DNA of 32,000 nucleotides. Source: Candidatus Thorarchaeota archaeon (lineage in GTDB: Archaea; Asgardarchaeota; Heimdallarchaeia; Hodarchaeales; Hodarchaeaceae). Shown piece after piece: positions 5,455 to 21,802 of the stretch. The notes beneath the pieces were generated by a model. That model ran no database searches. It saw only the letters and a list, made by a program, of their open reading frames with translations, and had not been told where the DNA came from. The stretch is from the NCBI GenBank assembly GCA_048882505.1, contig JBHLRO010000002.1, positions 210,001 to 242,000 of the forward strand, read 5' to 3'. Every line of letters begins with the position of its first letter. Position 1 is the first letter of the stretch. Position numbers and translations under genes: made by a program.

Positions 5455-6156
5455 TTGAGCCAAGAAGAGGTTGTCTTTGAAGAGAGCAAACAAGGAATTA
5501 AGATCGTCTTTTGGGGTGCAACCATGGCTGGGAAGACGACGGCGCTCTCACTTTTCCACGCCATAAAAAAGAGAGAAGATCCCGAGAGTGTCTATAATTT
5601 CCTCAAACTTGAAGACAAGGCTACGGAGCGCACGATTGGATTCGATCAAGCCACCTTCGGTTTGGGCACAGGTACGGGACGAGAATTTAAATATCATCTC
5701 TTTACGACTCCTGGACAAGATCGTTTCAAAAGCATGCGTAAAATCGTTGTGAATGGTCTTCATGGCATTATAATTGTGTTAGATTCAGAATCTGCGCGGT
5801 GGGAGGAGAACAAGACTTCGCTTACAGAATTGTTTGAGATCTTGGAAGATAAACTGGTCAATGGGGAAGTTAAGTTACAGATAATGTTAAATAAGATGGA
5901 TTTACCTGTTGACACGCGTATTTCGGCGGCAGATGTTGGGCGTTTGATGGTGGAGGCAGGGGTCTCGGACAAGTTACGAGACACTTTTGCCAGTGTACAT
6001 GAAGTTTCATGCCTAGAGGCTTTACATTCATTGAAGGAAACATGGAGTAGTGGAAACTGGAACCCGAAATCTCGACCTCAGCCGGTACAACGAATCATCA
6101 TGCCCATCCAGCAAGTAATTAGGGACATTTTGATAGAGGAACTTCGAAAGAATTAA
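5455..6156 (+). CDS. Small Ras-superfamily GTPase, MglA-like
   Basis: G1 GATMAGKTT, switch I TERTIGFD (MglA has TDRTLFFD), G3 FTTPGQ (MglA-type TxPGQ rather than DxxGQ) and G4 NKMD. TTG start. Confidence 0.9.
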   Translation: MSQEEVVFEESKQGIKIVFWGATMAGKTTALSLFHAIKKREDPESVYNFLKLEDKATERTIGFDQATFGLGTGTGREFKYHLFTTPGQDRFKSMRKIVVNGLHGIIIVLDSESARWEENKTSLTELFEILEDKLVNGEVKLQIMLNKMDLPVDTRISAADVGRLMVEAGVSDKLRDTFASVHEVSCLEALHSLKETWSSGNWNPKSRPQPVQRIIMPIQQVIRDILIEELRKN

Positions 6157-6628: not shown

Positions 6629-7588
6629 CTATGGCATCCAATCACGTAATCGAGGGAGCCCGATAGTGGTGTAATCGTGTTTGATTTGTTTTATATTCTT
6701 AAAGATCTGAGATCTCATTTCTTCTAACTGCAAAGTACTCATAATCTTTCCTAACGTTGGTTTGACGTTTTTCAATCCTGCAGTAATTCGACTGTACTCA
6801 GGTATTTGTTTTTCTGTTAATAATTCGTTCTTGTAGATTGAATGTTCTGCAGATAAACCCCCTGATAAAATCTTAAAGCCGTCTTCCTCTGAAAGTGTCG
6901 TTTTTGATTTACACAAATTTTCTAATAGATCAAAGATTTCCTTATTTGGATGCATTATATTCCTCGTTACAACACCTCGCATATACATCTGGGTTGTTTC
7001 TCGTTCTAAAAGAAATGTAAACGGGATTTTAGTCATATACTCTGTCATTTCTAATTTTTGGGAGCTAATTGTTGAACTAGATTGATCCTGAGCTCGAATA
7101 AAGGCCTCACTGGGTAAAACAATCCCACAAATTTCTCGAAAATCGGTGATGATTTTTCCTACAGAGATAGAAAATTGAGTATAATAAACGCCAACACCAA
7201 CAACTAGGATAAAGGCTTCGCCAGTTGTTTCTTCCGTTCCTGTGAGAGTAATATCTGGGATTAATAAGACGGAATCTCTTCTCAATTCGGTCACAGGCTG
7301 ATTTAAATAAAATCCCTTAAAATTCGTATCAATCAATTGATTCCAGGAGGGGAAAAACCAAATTTCTTTTAGAATACCCAATTGACTTTCTTCTTGTAGC
7401 TGAATTTGACTCAAATCACTCTCAGAGCTGGCTTGCTCCCTGATTTCTTGTTCTCGGGCTGCGATTTGCTGTTCAATCCGTTCCTTTTCGGTTTCCAATC
7501 TTAGGAGTTCAGTTTCTAGTGCTTTCAGTCGTCGTTGAATACTTTTCAATCGCTGCTTATCGTGTTCTTGTTGTTCAATCAATTTCAT
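6629..7588 (-). CDS. Hypothetical protein with an N-terminal coiled coil and an unrecognised globular domain
   Basis: Long ORF with heptads in LKSIQRRLKALETELLRLETEKERIEQQI. ATG 7588 follows GAGTGAAGG; the ORF track start is 7606. Confidence 0.75.
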   Translation of the reverse strand: MKLIEQQEHDKQRLKSIQRRLKALETELLRLETEKERIEQQIAAREQEIREQASSESDLSQIQLQEESQLGILKEIWFFPSWNQLIDTNFKGFYLNQPVTELRRDSVLLIPDITLTGTEETTGEAFILVVGVGVYYTQFSISVGKIITDFREICGIVLPSEAFIRAQDQSSSTISSQKLEMTEYMTKIPFTFLLERETTQMYMRGVVTRNIMHPNKEIFDLLENLCKSKTTLSEEDGFKILSGGLSAEHSIYKNELLTEKQIPEYSRITAGLKNVKPTLGKIMSTLQLEEMRSQIFKNIKQIKHDYTTIGLPRLRDWMP

Positions 7589-7645
7589 GTGTTTGCCTTC
7601 ACTCATTGCTGAATAATATTGGTGAATTACTTGCTTTAAATGTAA

Positions 7646-8171: not shown

Positions 8172-10058
8172 ATGAAACAGACTCGCTTGAACGAGATTAT
8201 GGAGGGAAAATTTAGGTTACCTGAGCATGAAAGGCTGCGTATGGATTTAAAACCTGAAAAAATACCTCCATTACCAAGTGGAGCGAATGCACTTACCCCT
8301 AGTACAAAAGCGGGGTGGCAGACCGAGGGCATCATCAGAGCAATTTTGTCTAATCTGCATAATGGCAAAGATTGGGAGACGTTTTTCATTTATGGAGGGA
8401 GTGGGAAGGCGATGCGCAATTGGAAGGCATTTTATGATACTATTGAGCTTTTAAAGAACTTAGAACAAAATGAGACTCTATTTATGCAGTCTGGGGTGCC
8501 CTATGGCAAAACCATCACCCATCCTTTAGCACCAAGATGTGTAATCACCAATTCAGTCATTGTGCCCAACTGGATCCAATCTTTCCAAGAGTTTGTAGAC
8601 GCGGGTTTGACCGTTTACGGTCAGATGACGGCAGGAAGCTGGATTTTCATTGGCCTTCAGGGAATTATACAAGGAACATATGAGACACTGGTTGCGGCCA
8701 TCAATAAAGCTGAAGAAAGACCGTCTTATACCACTCTCTCGCCGTTTGAACAAAAATTGGTTGTAACAGCAGGATTGGGACTTATGGGAGGAGCTCAACC
8801 TTTAGCTATTAAGATGGCGGGGAAGGTCGCATTGATTGCGGAAATCGATCCATCAAATTTGGATAGGATTTATGGCCAAGGACGTGACAAGGGAACCCCT
8901 TACCTTGACATAAAAACGACTTCCATTCCTGAAAGCGTCAAACTTGCGCAAGAATATGCTGAGAAAGATAAATCCATATCCATCGGCGTTTTATGCAACG
9001 CCGTGGACTTGCTAGAGTATTTGATTTCAGAGAACATCACGCCTCACGTACTGACGGATCAGACCTCTGCTCACGATATGTTAAATGGATATATTCCTAC
9101 TGAGATGTCCTTCGAAGAAGCAATTGAACTACGCAAATCAGATCCGACTCATTACAAGAGCTTGGCTTATAAGACTGTAAAACGTCATGTACGCGCGATG
9201 TTGACTCTGCAAAAGCGGGGAGCGGAAACATTTGACTATGGGAATAACATTCGTGCCCAAGCGCATACTGCCGGACTTGATGACGCGTTTGGGTTTGCAG
9301 GATTCGTTGTTAATTACATTCGTCCTTTGTTTTGTGAAGGAAAAGGGCCGTTCAGATGGGCCGCGTTGTCAAATGACCCAGAGGACATTCGTATTACAGA
9401 TATTTATGCGAAGAAATTATTTCACGATGACCCAATGCTAATAAACTGGATAAATTTAGCTTCCAAGTACATTCCATTTGAGGGTGGGCTTCCTGCTAGA
9501 GTTTTTTGGGCAGGCTACAAGGGCAGGGCTGCGTTTGGGATGCTTCTGAACAAACTGTATGCAGACGGGTTGATTAAGGCCCCAGTTATCATTGGTCGTG
9601 ATCATTTAGATGGAGGATCAGTGGCAAGTCCTTATCGCGAGACAGAGGGAATGAAAGACGGATCTGACGCCATTGGAGATTATCCAGTTCTTAATCTTCT
9701 CGGAAATTCCTTGTGTGGCGCTACATGGACAAGTTATCATGGTGGAGGTGGTGTAGGAGTGGGATACTCACTTCACGCTGGCCAGGTCTGCGTAGCGGAT
9801 GGCACCCATATCTCTCAGGAACGGATATTCAGGGTTCTGACATGGGATCCTATGTCTGCCATCTTAAGACACGCGGCTGCGGGGTACTCTAAATCTATCA
9901 AGTTAGCAGAAGCCCACAACATTCTGATACCTGGAATAAGCGAACAACGGGATGCATCCTATCAGAAATTGTACCTAGAATTGATTCACCTTGTGGAAGA
10001 TCGAACAGACATCGATCTATATCCACCCCTGGAAAAACACGAAATACAATTAATTTGA
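8172..10058 (+). CDS. hutU: Urocanate hydratase
   Basis: Motifs GQMTAGSWIFIGLQGIIQGTYET, GLGLMGGAQP, DQTSAHD, GKGPFRW and GRDHLDGGSVASPYRETEGMKDGSDA. Carries N- and C-terminal extensions relative to typical ~550-aa HutU. Confidence 0.96.
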   Translation: MKQTRLNEIMEGKFRLPEHERLRMDLKPEKIPPLPSGANALTPSTKAGWQTEGIIRAILSNLHNGKDWETFFIYGGSGKAMRNWKAFYDTIELLKNLEQNETLFMQSGVPYGKTITHPLAPRCVITNSVIVPNWIQSFQEFVDAGLTVYGQMTAGSWIFIGLQGIIQGTYETLVAAINKAEERPSYTTLSPFEQKLVVTAGLGLMGGAQPLAIKMAGKVALIAEIDPSNLDRIYGQGRDKGTPYLDIKTTSIPESVKLAQEYAEKDKSISIGVLCNAVDLLEYLISENITPHVLTDQTSAHDMLNGYIPTEMSFEEAIELRKSDPTHYKSLAYKTVKRHVRAMLTLQKRGAETFDYGNNIRAQAHTAGLDDAFGFAGFVVNYIRPLFCEGKGPFRWAALSNDPEDIRITDIYAKKLFHDDPMLINWINLASKYIPFEGGLPARVFWAGYKGRAAFGMLLNKLYADGLIKAPVIIGRDHLDGGSVASPYRETEGMKDGSDAIGDYPVLNLLGNSLCGATWTSYHGGGGVGVGYSLHAGQVCVADGTHISQERIFRVLTWDPMSAILRHAAAGYSKSIKLAEAHNILIPGISEQRDASYQKLYLELIHLVEDRTDIDLYPPLEKHEIQLI

Positions 10059-14111: not shown

Positions 14112-15602
14112 GTGGAAAAGCCAACCGTTACATTAGATGGAGAATCACTCTCTATTCCAGATATGATTTTGATAACTCGAGATAATTGCGCAGTAGAGAT
14201 AGCACCCAAGAGCGTTCCAAGAATAGAACGGGCCGCAAATATCGTTCAAACTGTTTTGAGACAGAATAGGCGAATATATGGTGTTACAACGGGATTCGGA
14301 CATCTTCAGGAAGTACAGGTTTCTCCTGATAATGTAGTTCAACTTCAAGAAAACCTTGTTCTTAGTCACTCAGCAGGGGTAGGATTGGAACTACCCTCAG
14401 AAGTGGTTCGGGGAATGATGGTATTACAAATCAATAAACTTGTACGTGGACATTCTGGGGTACAATTGGAAGTGGTCGAGCTCCTTGTGGACCTTTTAAA
14501 CCACAATATTGTGCCCGTAGTTCCATCTCAGGGAAGTCTTGGGGCAAGTGGGGATCTTGCGCCGTTGGCACATCTTTCGCAGGTTTTGATTGGCAAAGGA
14601 TGGGTGGATTTTGGTGGGCAACGGATTACTGGTGGAGCGGCTCTAAAAAAGGTAGGGCTTGCGTCTCTTCGATTGGGAGCTAAAGATGGACTAGCTTTAC
14701 TTAATGGAACACAAGCAATGACAGCAATCGCCGCATTAGCAATTGCAGATGCCAAATATCTAGTTAGGATTGCCAATCTAGTAACTGCGATGAGTATGGA
14801 GGTACACCGGGCCAATATCGATGCGCTTAATCCTTTGATACATCAAGCTCGTCCACATCGGGGTCAGATAGATGTAGCGAAGGAATTGTTGGATATTTTG
14901 GATGGAAGTAAGAGCGTTCGGGATCACATACCTCACCAAGATCCATATTCCTTACGTTGTGTCCCCGCTGTCCACGGCGCCATTTTAGATGCAGTTCGAT
15001 ATGCAGAAAACGTGGTTGAAGTAGAAATGAATTCTTCCACTGATAATCCCCTGATTTTCTCGGTTGACCAGATTTACTCTGGAGGAAATTTTCATGGTCA
15101 TCCTGTTGCGATCGTAATGGATTTCTTGGGGCTAGCCATGACAGGGATTGGAACGATCTCAGAACGACGGGTTGAACGCCTGTTAAATCCAAGTCTTAGT
15201 GGTTTGCCTGCTTTTCTCGCCCCTGCTGCAGGGCCTAATTCTGGTTTAATGATCGCCCAATATACTTCGGCTTCATTGGTCGCTGAAAACAACCATCTCG
15301 CCTCTCCTGCCTCTGTTGATTCAATTCCGGTTTCTGCCAACCAAGAGGATTTTGTTTCCATGGGTACATCCGCGGCATCAAAAACTCGAATAATTATTCA
15401 GAATTTGCACAACATTCTTGCGATAGAATTACTATGTGCGGCGCAAGCTATAGATCTAGCCCAGATTAAAGACTTTCTCGCGCCTAAAACGAAGAAAGCC
15501 TTCTCCACAATCCGTGAGGTAGTTTCCTCTTTAACCCATGATCGAGAATTGGCTCCAGACATTTCCCAATGTGTTCGACTGATCCAGGATCGAAAGTTGT
15601 AA
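14112..15602 (+). CDS. hutH: Histidine ammonia-lyase
   Basis: MIO-forming GASGDLAPL, plus YGVTTGFG, ALLNGTQ, QDPYSLRC, GGNFHG and SANQEDFVSMG. GAGGAG upstream of the GTG. Confidence 0.96.
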   Translation: MEKPTVTLDGESLSIPDMILITRDNCAVEIAPKSVPRIERAANIVQTVLRQNRRIYGVTTGFGHLQEVQVSPDNVVQLQENLVLSHSAGVGLELPSEVVRGMMVLQINKLVRGHSGVQLEVVELLVDLLNHNIVPVVPSQGSLGASGDLAPLAHLSQVLIGKGWVDFGGQRITGGAALKKVGLASLRLGAKDGLALLNGTQAMTAIAALAIADAKYLVRIANLVTAMSMEVHRANIDALNPLIHQARPHRGQIDVAKELLDILDGSKSVRDHIPHQDPYSLRCVPAVHGAILDAVRYAENVVEVEMNSSTDNPLIFSVDQIYSGGNFHGHPVAIVMDFLGLAMTGIGTISERRVERLLNPSLSGLPAFLAPAAGPNSGLMIAQYTSASLVAENNHLASPASVDSIPVSANQEDFVSMGTSAASKTRIIIQNLHNILAIELLCAAQAIDLAQIKDFLAPKTKKAFSTIREVVSSLTHDRELAPDISQCVRLIQDRKL

Positions 15603-15635: not shown

Positions 15636-16817
15636 CTAACTGAAATAATAATAGAGGCCCGAAATGGCATAGATCGCGGTTCCTTTCCAGAGTACCGACT
15701 CGTCTACCTGAAATTGAGGATGATGGTGCGGATGGATGATGCCTGTTTCCTCATTGTAGATCCCAAGAGTGAAAAAAACTCCTTTGGTTCTTTGTAGATA
15801 AAATCCGAAATCCTCGCCAATCATACTTGAGGGAGCTGGTTTAACTTCATCTAGATCATGGAGTATCGTGATGATCTTCTTTGTGGTGTATTTGTCATTA
15901 ATCAAGGCTGGATAACCTAGGGGATCAATATTAACCAATCCCTTGCAACGCCACGCTTGTGAATATCCAACGACCACCTCCTGGAGGCGATCCAAAATAC
16001 GTGAGCGAACTTTGGGATTCAGTGTTCGAAGTGTTCCATTTAGGATTCCAACCGTTGGGATAATATTGTGGGCATTACTCCCTACTATCCGCGGAATTGT
16101 TAACACAACTGGTTCAAAGGGGTCTATCTCACGTGAAATTACCTTTTGGAGTGCATTATATATATCGAAAAGCACAGGAATCGGATCGATGGTTTCATGA
16201 GGCATTGCGGCATGTCCTCCGATCCCAGAAACTATAATTGTGAAACGATCTGAGGAAGCAAATAAAGCTCCGTCCGTTCTAGTAGCAATTTCGCCAGAGG
16301 ATGATGCTTGCCAGACATGAAGACCAAAAATCGCGTCCACGTCGTCAAGCTGCCCCTCTTCTACAATTTTTTTTGCCCCCGCCTTGCCTTCTTCCCCGGG
16401 TTGAAATATTAGCTTTAGAGGGCCTGGTAAAATCTCTCGGTACTTGAAAAGAATTTTGGCCGCACCCAATAACATCGCTGTATGAGCATCATGTCCACAG
16501 GCATGCATCTTTCCAGGTATTTTACTTCGGTATGGGATATCATTCTCCTCGGTGATATTTAGCGCGTCGATATCAGCCCGCAAAGCCACAGTTTTTCCTT
16601 GAGAATCATTATTAAGGATTCCCAGGATCCCAGTACCCGCAGTTCTTTCCGTATCAAAACCAAGGTTCTTTAGTTCATTTTCAATGTAATCTGCAGTTTT
16701 ATGTTCTTCGTATGCTGTTTCTGGGTGCATGTGGAGATAACGACGCGTTTGGACTATGTACTCCTCCAGGTCTCTGGCCTCGTCGATTATCTGATGCTTT
16801 AAATCTCGGAATATCAA
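15636..16817 (-). CDS. M20 family amidohydrolase (M20D/IAA-amino acid hydrolase-like)
   Basis: Motifs LHMHPE, ALRADIDAL, MHACGHD, IFQPGEEG, GGHAAMPH, GEDF and HHP.FQVDE. Confidence 0.92.
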   Translation of the reverse strand: MIFRDLKHQIIDEARDLEEYIVQTRRYLHMHPETAYEEHKTADYIENELKNLGFDTERTAGTGILGILNNDSQGKTVALRADIDALNITEENDIPYRSKIPGKMHACGHDAHTAMLLGAAKILFKYREILPGPLKLIFQPGEEGKAGAKKIVEEGQLDDVDAIFGLHVWQASSSGEIATRTDGALFASSDRFTIIVSGIGGHAAMPHETIDPIPVLFDIYNALQKVISREIDPFEPVVLTIPRIVGSNAHNIIPTVGILNGTLRTLNPKVRSRILDRLQEVVVGYSQAWRCKGLVNIDPLGYPALINDKYTTKKIITILHDLDEVKPAPSSMIGEDFGFYLQRTKGVFFTLGIYNEETGIIHPHHHPQFQVDESVLWKGTAIYAISGLYYYFS

Positions 16818-16927: not shown

Positions 16928-18256
16928 ATGCTTATTAATGAAGTTGAGGAAGTATTGGAAGGAGAAAAGGTTGAAGAAATTGCGTTACAATTCACTGATC
17001 TAGTGGGCACCCTTCATACGCTTTGGGTTCCCGTTAAGCATTTTTCGATTATCATTGAGGAAGGAATGCATACGGATGGTAGTTCATTAGGAGTGGTTGA
17101 TGTCAGTAAGAGTGACGTTAAGTTAATACCAGATCCTAGTAGTTTTATCGTGCTCCCACACGGTTTGTTCCCACAACGGGTCGCAAGAGTAGTTTGTGAT
17201 TTATATGAGCCAGATTCCAATAAACCATTCGAGCTAGATCCCCGTTTTATTTTGAAAAAAGGTTTACAGAACATTCAAGATACATTAGGGGCTAATGTCG
17301 TTGGTTATATGTCAAGTGAAATCGAGTTCTTCCTGTTTGAGAGGAAAGAACACGATAAAATCAAACTGATCGATGAGGCTGGGTATCTAGCTTCTCCCCC
17401 AGCAGATCGTGGTGCAGAACTTCGCCTTGAAATGACTAAACAATTTAACCATATAGGAATCGCGATTGAAAAACATCACCACGAAGTTCCTCATGGAAAA
17501 AGCGAGTTCAATCTGGCCTATGATCAAGCATTACGAATGGCAGATACTATTTATCTTGTTAAATTTCTAACAAAAATAATTGCTGCCAAAAAAGGACTCA
17601 TAGCATCTTTTATGCCCAAACCGTTCTACGGAGAATACGGAGCAGGATTGCATACACATATTAATTTACGGGATGATAAAAACGAGGTAAATCTTTTCGC
17701 GGATTCTACTCAATCCCATGGGTTAAGTGGCATGGCGTTAGGATTCATGGCAGGAATTCTTACTCATGCAAAAGGTTTGGCAGGCATAACAAACCCGTCG
17801 GTTAATTCTTACAAACGGCTTGTACCAGGATGGGAAGCCCCTGTTTACATTTCATGGGCCAATTACAACCGTTCGACACTAATAAGAATCCCACCTGGAA
17901 AAAAGAAAGCTGCACGGTTGGAATATCGTCCCACTGATGGGTCCTGCAATTTTTATTTATCTTATGCTGCCCTGTTCGCAGCAGGACTAGATGGTATCAA
18001 AAAGAAACTAATCCCCCCTCCCGCTGTTGAAGAGGATATCTATAAGATGAGTCCCAATGAGCGTACGGAAAGAGGAATTGAGACACTTCCAGGAAATTTC
18101 GGAGAGGCACTTTACCACCTTCAAAAAGATCAGTATCTTGAAGAATCACTGGGTTCGAATTTTTATCAGAAATATCTCGATATTAAAACTCGTGAATGGC
18201 ACGATTTCAACGTTTATGTCCATGAATGGGAAAGAAAGAGATATATAGATGTTTAA
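16928..18256 (+). CDS. glnA: Glutamine synthetase type I-like gamma-glutamyl ligase
   Basis: Motifs QFTDLVG, TDGSS, EIEFF, HHEV..GKSEF, FMPKP, GLHTH, NSYKRLVPGWEAP, NRS.LIRIP and RLEYR. Confidence 0.88.
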   Translation: MLINEVEEVLEGEKVEEIALQFTDLVGTLHTLWVPVKHFSIIIEEGMHTDGSSLGVVDVSKSDVKLIPDPSSFIVLPHGLFPQRVARVVCDLYEPDSNKPFELDPRFILKKGLQNIQDTLGANVVGYMSSEIEFFLFERKEHDKIKLIDEAGYLASPPADRGAELRLEMTKQFNHIGIAIEKHHHEVPHGKSEFNLAYDQALRMADTIYLVKFLTKIIAAKKGLIASFMPKPFYGEYGAGLHTHINLRDDKNEVNLFADSTQSHGLSGMALGFMAGILTHAKGLAGITNPSVNSYKRLVPGWEAPVYISWANYNRSTLIRIPPGKKKAARLEYRPTDGSCNFYLSYAALFAAGLDGIKKKLIPPPAVEEDIYKMSPNERTERGIETLPGNFGEALYHLQKDQYLEESLGSNFYQKYLDIKTREWHDFNVYVHEWERKRYIDV

Positions 18257-18285: not shown

Positions 18286-19560
18286 ATGGTTTTAGAGGCA
18301 GATTTCGCCATAATCAATGCGAATGAACTGGTAACCCTTAAAGGATCAAGTGAGGCTCCTCAGATTAAAGTACAAATGAGAGAATTGGGAATCATTCGTA
18401 ATGGTGCCGTAGCGGTAAGAAACGGGAGGATTGTTGCCGTTGGAAAGACACAGGATGTTTTAAATAACCTTAAGAAAGGATTTGAAGTCGTAAATGCCGC
18501 AGGAAAACTTGTGACTCCCGGATTAATCGATCCTCATGTTCATCTGGTGTTTGCTGGCACCAGAGAAGATGAACTTGAAAAGATGGCTGTATTAGGTGTT
18601 CCTTACCTGGAGATTAAAGCTCAAGGAGGAGGGATGAATAAATCGTTAAAAGAAACTGCAGCGACTGGTTTTAAAACACAGATTGGAATAACCTCCAAAA
18701 TACTGGACACGATGCTTATTCATGGAACAACCACCATTGAAGCGAAAAGCGGATATGAAATGACTTTCGACGGGGAGATCAAACAGCTCGAAATAATCAA
18801 CACTCTTAATAAACTCCATCCTCTTGACCTTGTTCCAACTTTTCTAGCACAGGGGATACCACCGGAATTTGAAGAGCGGGTGGATGACTTAGTCGATGAA
18901 ATTGTCGAAAAATGGATCCCTGAGATCTCCAAACGAAAATTAGCGCAATATATCGACGTATTTTGCGAAAGAGGTTACTATAACCTTGAACAAAGTCGTC
19001 GAATTTTGGAAACTGGTAGAAAATATGGATTGAAATTAAGAAACCATTGCGATTGGTTGGCTCATAGTGGGGGAGCTAAGTTGGCTGCGGATCTAGGAGA
19101 CGTAACCTCCGCAGATCATCTGATATTCACCCCAATGCACGAAGTGGAAGCTCTAAAGGATCAAGGTACTATTATCATCTTCCTTCCAACTTCGCCATTC
19201 TGTTATGTAGGAACTTACGCGGACGCCCGTGCAATAATTGATCGAGGATTGCCCGTAGCGATAGCCACCGATGTAAGTGCGGCTAACCGCTGTGAATCCA
19301 TGCAGATGATGATGACCCTTGCAGTCCTGAAAATGAAGATGACGGCGGCTGAAGCACTCACAGCTGCAACTATCAATGCAGCTCATTCTATCGATCGTGC
19401 CCATGACATAGGAAGCCTTGAACAGGGAAAAAAAGCGGATATTGTGATTTTTAATGCACCAAACCATAAGTTCTTTCCTTACAATTATGGGATCAATCTA
19501 GCTGAGAAAGTGTTCAAAAATGGCTGTTTGGTGGTTGAAAACGGCAATCTGAGTTACTAA
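18286..19560 (+). CDS. hutI: Imidazolonepropionase-like amidohydrolase (divergent)
   Basis: Motifs PGLIDPHVHLVFAG.R..E, YLEI...GGG, TTIEAKSGY, IDVFCE, SADHL, IATD and GSLEQGKKAD. Clusters with hutU and hutH. Confidence 0.85.
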   Translation: MVLEADFAIINANELVTLKGSSEAPQIKVQMRELGIIRNGAVAVRNGRIVAVGKTQDVLNNLKKGFEVVNAAGKLVTPGLIDPHVHLVFAGTREDELEKMAVLGVPYLEIKAQGGGMNKSLKETAATGFKTQIGITSKILDTMLIHGTTTIEAKSGYEMTFDGEIKQLEIINTLNKLHPLDLVPTFLAQGIPPEFEERVDDLVDEIVEKWIPEISKRKLAQYIDVFCERGYYNLEQSRRILETGRKYGLKLRNHCDWLAHSGGAKLAADLGDVTSADHLIFTPMHEVEALKDQGTIIIFLPTSPFCYVGTYADARAIIDRGLPVAIATDVSAANRCESMQMMMTLAVLKMKMTAAEALTAATINAAHSIDRAHDIGSLEQGKKADIVIFNAPNHKFFPYNYGINLAEKVFKNGCLVVENGNLSY

Positions 19561-19740: not shown

Positions 19741-20460
19741 GTGTCGGTCTTTACAAAACGGTTGAGTAAATGGTTTAAAAAACCTGAAGAACCTACTGAG
19801 AAAGAACTTCTCGTAAATTTCATTCATGACTTAGAATCTGTATTAGAGTCGATGGAAGGAATGGCTGGTGATCTTTCGGGAGGAATGTCAGAACAAGTTG
19901 TCCAGAAACGCTCATTGACATCCAAACTACTAGCATCTTTGCCTCGTTTTCTTCAACCCAGAGATATCCAGAAACAAAACGAAAAGATTAAGGAAATTAA
20001 TGAAACAAAACGAAAAATGCAGCTACTTCGTGGAACGTTGGGAGAAATCAGCGAATCAATCGAAACCATGGATTTAAGAGCGAGCCCTCCGGAACAAACG
20101 GGTGTTGGCGCAAGGATTTATGAAATTGCATATCCTGGGGAGGTAATTTCCTCTAAAAATGTGGGAACTCTAGAAGAACGCCTCCAAATGCTTGAAAACT
20201 CCTTCTTAACTTCTATGGATAGAATGAATGAACAGATGACACAGATATCCCAGAATCTAGGTACCCTAGCTCGGCGTTTAGATGAACAGGGAGTTAAAAT
20301 CGATAAAATCGATACAAAAATTAACGAAGTAGATTCTAAATTGCAGAAAGTTCAATCGACATTAGGGAAAATTTCGAGAAAACTGACTCAGAACCGTACA
20401 TTACTGGCTCTGTTGGCGGGGTCAGTAATTGCCCTTGTAATTGTCATTGTTGTACTCTAG
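19741..20460 (+). CDS. Tail-anchored SNARE-like protein (Q-SNARE motif plus C-terminal transmembrane helix)
   Basis: Central Q183 (DEQG). Hydrophobic residues at SNARE layer spacing: M159, M162, M166, I169, L173, L176, L180, then I187, I190, I194, V197, L201, V204, L208, I211. Terminal 19-aa hydrophobic LLALLAGSVIALVIVIVVL and no N-terminal signal peptide. Confidence 0.8.
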   Translation: MSVFTKRLSKWFKKPEEPTEKELLVNFIHDLESVLESMEGMAGDLSGGMSEQVVQKRSLTSKLLASLPRFLQPRDIQKQNEKIKEINETKRKMQLLRGTLGEISESIETMDLRASPPEQTGVGARIYEIAYPGEVISSKNVGTLEERLQMLENSFLTSMDRMNEQMTQISQNLGTLARRLDEQGVKIDKIDTKINEVDSKLQKVQSTLGKISRKLTQNRTLLALLAGSVIALVIVIVVL

Positions 20461-20569
20461 AATCCAACTTCGGTTCCCGATTTCTGTGCATCCTTAAATC
20501 AATAGGCAAAAGAATTTAAAGGGCACAGGCCCAAATGAGATTAATTGAGATTAAAGGGTGAATTCTGTT

Positions 20570-21037
20570 TTGCAGAAGAATGAAATCAACGCAGAACTGT
20601 CCCGGCTACTTAAAAGTGATACATCGATCAAGGTGACATTGCTTGGGGATCGTACAGGTCTTACTATTGCGCGTGCATCACGTCTACTCGTTTCCGAAAC
20701 AATGGGAGCATTTGATCTAGAGAGTATTGGTGCAATTGCTTCAGCGGTCTTCTGTGGTGCAGCAGAACAAGGTAGCGCGCTGGCGCTAGGAAATCTGGCC
20801 GTTATGCTTGCTGAATTCACCGATGGTAAAATACTGACCGCCCAGTCAGGGGATAGGGGGATTCTAGTCGTGGTAGCCGAGCCTGATGCCCAGTTAGGCC
20901 TGGTACGCGTTCGTATGAAGGAAACATCAGAGGCCTTGGCCATGTTAATGGGAAAATTAACGGAACCAGCGGTAAAAATTAAGAAACCAGAATCTCAATC
21001 CATAATGGCTGCGTTAAAAGAGCTGGAAAACTTCTAG
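20570..21037 (+). CDS. Roadblock/LC7 (MglB-like) domain protein
   Basis: Roadblock pattern DRTGLTIA...SIGAIASAVF...LAEFTDGKIL...GILVVVAEPDAQLGLVR, followed by a C-terminal tail helix. GGGTGA at about 20556-20561 looks like the RBS, favouring TTG 20570 over GTG 20558. Confidence 0.9.
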   Translation: MQKNEINAELSRLLKSDTSIKVTLLGDRTGLTIARASRLLVSETMGAFDLESIGAIASAVFCGAAEQGSALALGNLAVMLAEFTDGKILTAQSGDRGILVVVAEPDAQLGLVRVRMKETSEALAMLMGKLTEPAVKIKKPESQSIMAALKELENF

Positions 21038-21160: not shown

Positions 21161-21802
21161 GTGACACGGGTCATATTTATGCGTTTTTCGCAGTTAAACG
21201 ACATAATGCTAAAACTCACAGATCCCGTGACTGTGAGTGTTCTTAATATCTTGTTAAACCAGAAGGAAATTATTGACGAACAGATCGTAAACCTTCTGAA
21301 TGAAGAGATCGAAGAAAAACCGAAAGTTCCTTCATCCCAACCCGATGATGCGGCAAATGAGAGTTCCCGTATCGCCTTAAAGGAAGTAAGAAGATCGTTG
21401 TACAAATTGAATGAAAGGTCTTTGGCCCGTTATAGGCGGGTACGCGATAAGGAAACCGGCTATTTTGTGTACTATTGGTCTCCTATCTGGGAGCGAATAC
21501 GAGATCTGATCATAAGTCGTCGTAAACTTAGTCTAAAGAAACTACGTCAACGATTAGATTATGAACAGAGAAATCTCCTTTATGCTTGCCAGGAGGGACA
21601 TTCCCCCGTAACGTTTTCGGATGCCTTTGAAATGGGGTTCATATGCGCCTCGTGTGGAGACGAATTGGCACAGAAAGATAACCAGACCACCATTGACTTC
21701 CTACAGAAGAAGATTAAGGTATTAGAAGGGGAGCTAAATCGGGGGCTGGAGGAGCTAAAAAACCTGCCGGATATCAGGAAAGAAGTGAAGAATACAAACT
21801 AA
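21161..21802 (+). CDS. tfe: Transcription factor E (TFIIE-alpha homolog)
   Basis: Winged helix EVRRSLYKL...RVRDKETGYFVYYW and zinc ribbon YACQEGH...AFEMGFICASCG. The start may be ATG 21179. Confidence 0.93.
   Translation: MTRVIFMRFSQLNDIMLKLTDPVTVSVLNILLNQKEIIDEQIVNLLNEEIEEKPKVPSSQPDDAANESSRIALKEVRRSLYKLNERSLARYRRVRDKETGYFVYYWSPIWERIRDLIISRRKLSLKKLRQRLDYEQRNLLYACQEGHSPVTFSDAFEMGFICASCGDELAQKDNQTTIDFLQKKIKVLEGELNRGLEELKNLPDIRKEVKNTN

Follow-up and report, generated by a model that had tools for sequence, protein, structure and literature searches.

A putative HPS1-type prototypic SNARE with a 16-layer motif and a tail anchor encoded in a Heimdallarchaeial genome

The window analyzed here, a stretch of 32,000 nucleotides of archaeal genomic DNA, contains an open reading frame at 19741-20460 on the forward strand (239 codons and a stop codon, by translation of the window) that encodes a small tail-anchored protein with a SNARE-type motif. 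In three orthologous loci, the aligned position is occupied by a TTG or ATG start codon, and the sequence upstream of it is not conserved; since these loci share the aligned start and conservation begins there, the start position of the reading frame is supported. The SNARE gene is followed by a gene for a Roadblock/LC7 protein and by tfe (Table 1), and further downstream by genes for an HAD hydrolase and a DUF7121 protein, a wHTH-grpE unit, and a long reading frame that we take to be dnaK. The SNARE-Roadblock-tfe run is retained within the family to which the window belongs but not beyond it: the Roadblock orthologue is located on other contigs in three other SNARE-bearing families, and distant SNARE loci contain no Roadblock gene. 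Thus, the run looks like local synteny rather than a functional unit.

Upstream of the SNARE gene, histidine-utilization-type and nitrogen genes are found at 8172-10058, 14112-15602, 15636-16817, 16928-18256, and 18286-19560. This cluster, parts of which are syntenic in relatives, includes an aromatic/histidine ammonia-lyase, an M20 peptidase, a glutamine synthetase, and an imidazolonepropionase-like amidohydrolase; the reading frame at 8172-10058 is urocanase-like by eye, and a urocanase gene lies near an orthologous locus. Moreover, a small GTPase of the Arf/Ras type (233 aa; 5455-6156, forward strand; Pfam Arf E-value 1e-8) is encoded tail-to-tail with the window's copy of a gene referred to here as X.

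Table 1. Positions of the SNARE gene, its parts, and neighboring genes, in window coordinates unless another locus is named
Feature	Position	Strand	Remark
SNARE gene (HPS1 orthologue)	19741..20460	+	239 aa; GTG start; TAA/TAG-type stop at 20458-20460
Basic tip, residues 1-19, K-W-F-K-K motif	19741-19797	+	precedes the N-terminal helical region; conserved
N-terminal helical region, residues ~20-109	19798..20067	+	AlphaFold2 model, two long helices (20-54 and 74-109)
Y-E-x-A-Y-P-G-E linker motif, residues 127-134	20119..20142	+	connects the N-terminal region to the SNARE motif
SNARE motif, residues 159-211, layers -7 to +8	20215..20373	+	layer residues and conservation in 37 homologues
Zero-layer glutamine Q183, CAG	20287..20289	+	Q in 35/37 homologues
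Short basic linker SRKLTQNRT, residues 212-220	20374..20400	+	sequence read
C-terminal TM anchor, residues 221-239	20401..20457	+	19 hydrophobic residues up to the stop codon; tail-anchor filter passed
Roadblock/LC7 (MglB-like) gene	20558-21037	+	downstream of the SNARE gene
tfe (TFIIE alpha)	21161-21802	+	after the Roadblock/LC7 gene
Protein X family copy	6629-7606	-	12 kb upstream of the SNARE gene; paralogue in the window
Other X members	L012:2389-3426:+, L010:3771-4811:-, G000:C12:45912-46946		

The protein consists of a basic N-terminal tip, a helical region, a linker motif, the SNARE motif, and a C-terminal membrane anchor. A preliminary description of this DNA had claimed a short basic linker and a transmembrane helix of 19 residues ending at the stop codon in a protein devoid of a signal peptide, and all these elements were found again; neither a signal peptide nor a second hydrophobic segment is present in the 239 residues. 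The overall architecture claimed there (a tail anchor, a 16-layer motif, and a central glutamine) is thus borne out. A helical region is also predicted at the N-terminus, for which the AlphaFold2 model computed from an alignment of 37 sequences gives a block pLDDT of 75-86 over residues 21-100. The N-terminal part of the proteins related to HPS1, which are introduced below, has been described as a likely three-helix bundle (bioRxiv 10.1101/810531; bioRxiv 10.64898/2026.10.19.760048). Fold searches of the PDB and AlphaFold-SwissProt with the full-length monomer model (mean pLDDT 67.8) retrieved generic helical bundles only, none of them significant, and thereby speak neither for nor against an Habc-like N-terminal domain.

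Several stretches outside the SNARE motif are under strong conservation. L8, W11, E20, and K21 are invariant among close homologues, as are K214, L215, T216, Q217, N218, and T220 in the basic linker preceding the anchor. The basic tip, with L8, W11, K13, and K14, is strongly conserved although it lies outside the SNARE motif. In the linker motif, 24 close homologues show no variation at Y127, E128, P132, G133, or E134, and distant ones mostly retain P-G-E; residues 127-134 are of low confidence in the AlphaFold2 model. Both the basic tip and the Y-E-x-A-Y-P-G-E motif could be putative binding sites.

Regarding the SNARE motif itself, the register proposed in the preliminary description was reproduced by script. 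The codon at 20287-20289, claimed to encode the central Q183, is CAG; the residues at -24, -21, -17, -14, -10, -7, and -3 are M, M, M, I, L, L, and L, and those at +4, +7, +11, +14, +18, +21, +25, and +28 are I, I, I, V, L, V, L, and I, as had been read. Within the real sequence, register 183 alone has hydrophobic residues in all 15 layers. When residues 136-216 were shuffled 100,000 times, a Q- or R-centred register with 15/15 layers was never generated, and one shuffle gave at least 13. The sequence shows an uninterrupted coiled coil of eight heptads with one polar core residue, and the heptad motif of ~53 residues with 16 layers and a central polar layer by which the eukaryotic SNARE superfamily is recognized is present in the window protein.

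This pattern has been maintained during the divergence of the family. All 16 layers are kept in 37 homologues with identities down to 26%, the non-zero layers being hydrophobic throughout and the zero layer being Q in 35 and H in two. Moreover, the spacing between the motif and the TM helix varies by no more than one residue across homologues, distant ones included, so that both features whose conservation the preliminary description had proposed to check, the central glutamine and the TM spacing, are retained. The two homologues with a histidine zero layer are P0075 and P0086, with EEHG and GDHG at this position, respectively; a polar layer with His in place of Gln goes unmentioned in the available portion of the published description of the family.

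The preliminary description had also pointed out that SNARE-like proteins were already reported from Heimdallarchaeota, and the window protein is orthologous to a member of exactly that family. Neveu et al. (2019) named HPS1 (PWI47941.1) and HPS2 (OLS22354.1) the 'Heimdallarchaeota prototypic SNAREs', assigned the SNARE motif of HPS1 to residues 159-211, and showed that this motif enters complexes with neuronal SNAREs (bioRxiv 10.1101/810531). More recently, Bentahar et al. (2026) found HPS1 to be a tetramer by SEC-MALS and determined its crystal structure at 2.4 Å, a homotetramer whose helices run parallel in a four-helix bundle of 16 layers, with four Q183 side chains around water in layer 0; syntaxin 6 served as the search model in molecular replacement, and the core volumes of the structure are like those of eukaryotic SNARE bundles (bioRxiv 10.64898/2026.10.19.760048). 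In the same work, an F155W variant was used for detection, full-length HPS1 was targeted to the ER in human cells, and ~50 family members were reported, restricted to Heimdallarchaeia, generally one per genome, and placed outside the Qa, Qb, Qc, and R groups in the tree (bioRxiv 10.64898/2026.10.19.760048).

A search of 5.8 billion proteins with the window protein gave 67 full-length homologues (E-values 1e-64 to 1e-142) of ~239 aa, nearly all of 238-240 aa, and those with a name all come from MAGs of Heimdallarchaeota, Hodarchaeales, or 'Promethearchaeota'. An exhaustive profile-free search added ~20 clusters of equal length and 26-40% identity. One homologue, P0038, shares 67% identity with the window protein and differs little from the HPS1 sequence in the supplement of bioRxiv 10.1101/810531, according to a by-eye comparison of the first ~85 residues. 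Since the window protein aligns collinearly with HPS1 as printed, has this identity of 67% to the near copy P0038, and carries the published landmarks F155, motif 159-211, and Q183 at the same residues, it is, judging from its sequence, an orthologue of HPS1 within the 'Hod' clade of the Heimdallarchaeial prototypic SNARE family.

The similarity to HPS1, which comes from Heimdallarchaeota B3-JM-08, extends over the whole chain. Both proteins have 239 residues and are collinear from residue 1, they hardly differ in the linker and TM anchor, and 14 of the 16 core layers are the same, the other two being conservative changes (M162/I and V204/I). Likewise, both genes occur as a single copy per genome within the same 'Hod' clade. 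They differ in their species of origin and in sequence, with a whole-protein identity of ~67% as estimated via P0038 and an identity of ~70% in the motif, a hand count from machine-read, imperfect supplement text. Furthermore, whereas the HPS1 tetramer has been measured experimentally, that of the window protein is a prediction. HPS2, from Heimdallarchaeota LC_2, and the other SNAREs of the Heimdall and Kari clades share the architecture, the LDEQG core, the tail anchor, and the single copy per genome, but they are only 26-40% identical to the window protein (26-30% over the full length for members of the HPS2-like clade, with E-values of 1e-17 to 1e-21).

The genome from which the window derives (94.6% complete) encodes a single SNARE gene. 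In a six-frame scan of its 4.3 Mb with PF05739, the reading frame at 19741 reached 26.1 bits and the next one 12.3, and the same scan gave nothing above the cut-off in 14 control genomes. An R-layer or other Q-layer partner, which the preliminary description had suggested seeking in the rest of the genome, failed to appear: among tail-anchored reading frames, PF05739 matches, and family-profile matches over the whole genome, no partner SNARE was detected, the other tail-anchored reading frames having at most 12 of 15 layers and the next real-looking candidate 10 of 15. Homomeric assembly is therefore expected. As for accessory machinery, three full-length genes of the ArsA/Get3 family are present. 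The search for a Sec1/Munc18 homologue gave no match in this genome, the control genomes offering no positive control for it, and the alpha-SNAP model gave only weak TPR-like matches that also occur in control genomes.

Among 400 genomes of the phylum, strong family matches were found in 36 genomes besides that of the window, all in five families of its class. Expressed by family, the SNARE is present in 19/21, 2/2, 1/1, 3/3, and 11/12 genomes, and in 0/31 and 0/12 genomes of two other families of the class, while outside the class no match to the SNARE family was obtained other than one weak coiled-coil match. The window gene thus shows both the single copy and the restriction to Heimdallarchaeia that characterize the HPS family. 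A tandem duplicate of the SNARE gene occurs at G078:C473:2993-4458 (reverse strand), in a genome of a neighboring family; SNARE duplications have been reported in two genomes (bioRxiv 10.64898/2026.10.19.760048).

Modeling of a homotetramer, another check proposed beforehand, gave a prediction that stood clear of its controls. Four copies of residues 150-216 had a prediction score of 0.79, the best control having 0.11. In a calibration on two copies, the mark reached by the four-copy prediction was attained for 21 of 30 proteins whose solved structures are pairs of one chain and for none of 23 whose structures are single chains. The runs agreed in at least 98% of the contacts with a partner pLDDT of at least 86, and the contacts are parallel and in register (183:183, 187:187, 197:197, 204:204, and 211:211). 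Since the number of chains was fixed at four, other oligomers are compatible with this result, and the model may have memorized solved SNARE bundles; hence, the prediction indicates likeness to a SNARE bundle rather than proof of one. Taken jointly, membership of the window protein in the HPS family and its assembly into such a bundle are very likely.

A mechanism can be outlined on this basis. The protein, which is tail-anchored and faces the cytosol, would be inserted into the membrane post-translationally, probably by an ArsA/Get3-type ATPase. Zippering of four copies would begin at their N-terminal end and proceed to the anchors in the membrane, while the N-terminal helical region would probably regulate the availability of the motif. 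In trans, with the copies located in two apposed membranes, zippering would pull the bilayers together and drive homotypic tethering or fusion. In cis, within one membrane, the bundle would be an inert end state whose opening would depend on an unfoldase, archaeal Cdc48 for instance. The fusion step itself, by an HPS-type homotetramer, is plausible, if a little short of probable.

The main alternative concerns function only and is compatible with membership in the HPS family. Accordingly, the protein would have a true SNARE fold and a job at the plasma membrane, in the forming, fusing, or resealing of protrusions, in extracellular-vesicle release or uptake, or in contacts between cells; or else its stable tetramer in cis would serve as a scaffold for a membrane domain. 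In culture, the Hodarchaeales, the order of the window protein's nearest named relatives, showed no endomembrane system and only infrequent vesicle-like structures, yet they make protrusions and membrane vesicles, whereas a Heimdallarchaeion rich in internal vesicles has no SNAREs. SNARE presence and internal vesicles are thus not coupled so far. In addition, the HPS1 homotetramer is extremely stable, with a Tm above 90 °C, mouse NSF does not take HPS complexes apart, there is no known SM protein, and one SNARE per genome leaves no room for a compartment-specific code. The facts on mouse NSF, the Hodarchaeales, and the vesicle-rich Heimdallarchaeion make a plasma-membrane or scaffold role a serious alternative. 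However, parallel zippering towards a C-terminal anchor is precisely the geometry that drives fusion in eukaryotes, and a plasma-membrane or scaffold role is considered somewhat unlikely.

The relationship to eukaryotic SNAREs has to be weighed against a simpler explanation, namely that the protein is a generic tail-anchored coiled coil that resembles SNAREs by convergence only, as any long heptad repeat beside a TM helix would. Scoring against SNARE profiles, as previously recommended, was carried out with Pfam and had a mixed outcome: the SNARE models do match, but every score remains under its curated cut-off, these being 26.8 bits for PF05739 (SNARE), 27.1 for PF12352 (V-SNARE_C), and 26.4 for PF00957 (Synaptobrevin). 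PF05739 gave 22.3 bits with the full protein and 25.2 bits with the motif (E-values 1.6e-5 to 1.4e-4), in addition to the value of the genome scan, with model positions 3-53 aligned to residues 187-237, i.e., from just past Q183 into the TM helix. PF12352 gave 22-25 bits and PF00957 16.7 bits. Unrelated coiled coils such as DUF7310, DUF1664, Snapin, FlaC, reovirus sigma-1, and designed coiled coils score similarly, many of their models at similar E-values, so that general-purpose sequence statistics do not separate the window protein from other coiled coils.

Comparisons with the PDB lead in the same direction and also beyond it. A sequence search with the window protein produced only marginal matches to coiled coils and SNAP-25, and the fold searches with the monomer model, already mentioned, are likewise what convergence would predict. 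Profiles of the motif and family match syntaxin 6 (7e-5), SNAP-25 (1e-4), syntaxin 7, syntaxin 1, syntaxin 13, and SNAP-29, with designed coiled coils and reovirus sigma-1 also among the top matches of the family profile. In the pairwise alignment, however, LDEQG falls on the LDEQG of the SNAP-25 N-terminal motif and Q183 on its zero-layer glutamine, presumably Q53, in agreement with the resemblance to syntaxin and SNAP-25 cores claimed in the preliminary description. This register, the exactly 16 layers with one central polar layer, the fixed distance to the TM helix, and the position of the reading frame as the sole PF05739 outlier in the whole genome all argue against mere convergence. The structural and biochemical behavior of HPS1 does so as well, given the success of a syntaxin 6 search model, the SNARE-like core volumes, and its entry into neuronal SNARE complexes. 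Therefore, convergence is very unlikely, and the sequence likeness of the window protein to SNAREs may be regarded as real but weak.

The automatically assigned JGI names of several homologues and weak FlaC_arch Pfam matches in 11-14 members suggest a part of the archaellum similar to FlaC or an SMC/RecN-type 'chromosome segregation ATPase'. Such an identity is contradicted by the domain content and is so improbable that it can be set aside: there is no ATPase domain, the FlaC matches are short, coiled-coil, and far below the cut-off, the neighboring genes belong to neither the archaellum nor SMC systems, and a tail anchor with a central Gln is foreign to those families.

Compared with eukaryotic SNAREs, the window protein shows a combination of shared and distinctive traits. 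The closest eukaryotic Q-SNAREs by sequence are syntaxin 6 (Qc) and the SNAP-25 N-terminal motif (Qb). A 16-layer motif with a central Gln is common to the Q-SNAREs, the syntaxins also resembling the window protein in the short basic linker and in the TM anchor at the C-terminus, and a parallel four-helix bundle is common to eukaryotic SNAREs and the HPS1 orthologue. Unlike eukaryotic SNARE complexes, that of HPS1 is a homotetramer with four Gln and no Arg. Moreover, in contrast to the situation of eukaryotic Q-SNAREs, no SM protein was found in the window genome and there is no known alpha-SNAP or NSF partner specific to it. The label 'Q-SNARE-like' used in the preliminary description is apt as regards the central Gln and the 16 layers but does not extend to any eukaryotic Q subtype: the weak Pfam matches of the family are scattered over the SNARE, V-SNARE_C, Synaptobrevin, and Sec20 models and the published tree places it outside all four groups, so that no Qa, Qb, Qc, or R assignment can be made.

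SNARE-type coiled coils also occur in other prokaryotes, namely the Legionellales SNAREs and chlamydial IncA, whose membrane topologies are other than that of the HPS family. These proteins come from intracellular pathogens, and they are thought to have been taken from, or to be mimics of, host SNAREs (bioRxiv 10.1101/810531). The HPS family, unlike these bacterial effectors, shows vertical inheritance within one archaeal class.

A further element of interest is the gene for protein X. X is an Asgard protein family of ~325-345 aa with no Pfam family. The model of the window copy (pLDDT 83.9) shows an N-terminal helix of 74 residues and a beta-rich domain, and searches of Pfam, the PDB (Foldseek), AFDB clusters, VIA-align wide, and the ESM Atlas retrieved only its own uncharacterized relatives or matches to the N-terminal helix. 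Thus, the whole-chain model corresponds to no recognized fold, and a new fold is not claimed. In the Heimdall and Kari clades the SNARE gene adjoins the gene for this protein (~345 aa there), unlike in the window. In two sister families, X and the SNARE are encoded on one contig in 13 of the 13 genomes where both were found, at a distance of no more than 310 bp in 12 of them and of 2.75 kb in the remaining one, and the pair is adjacent at two more metagenome loci. The arrangement is not uniform, with X upstream on the same strand, divergent, or downstream on the same strand, and the flanking genes vary by locus. In the genus to which the window belongs, X has expanded to 2-5 copies, and the 12-kb spacing between X and the SNARE gene is also found in another genome of the genus.

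X is far wider in distribution than the SNARE, being found in 30 of 31 genomes of a SNARE-less sister family and in 101 of 135 genomes of another class. Its presence in SNARE-less lineages implies that X is not strictly SNARE-dependent, and strict co-occurrence of the two was rejected. Gene neighbors of HPS genes are not mentioned by Neveu et al. or Bentahar et al. (bioRxiv 10.1101/810531; bioRxiv 10.64898/2026.10.19.760048). That X is a dedicated, previously undescribed partner of the Heimdall SNARE, with a direct functional link, is unlikely. Should X bind the SNARE, whether to chaperone it, to regulate it, or to act as an adaptor for its disassembly, this would give archaeal SNAREs their first accessory factor.

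In summary, the feature is real and was read correctly in the preliminary description, but the family is already published and structurally characterized, and the window does not contain a new kind of system; for this reason, its interest as a new finding is low. The window adds one more well-conserved orthologue of HPS1 and gives independent support to several published points, namely the single copy per genome, the lack of a partner SNARE, and the restriction to some Heimdallarchaeial families. It may also offer a useful, though doubtful, new lead in the conserved X gene beside the SNARE gene in sister clades, as a candidate SNARE-binding factor. To our knowledge, no archaeal proteins other than the Heimdall SNAREs are candidates for the ancestry of the membrane-fusion machinery of eukaryotes, and the HPS family bears directly on the origin of endomembranes.
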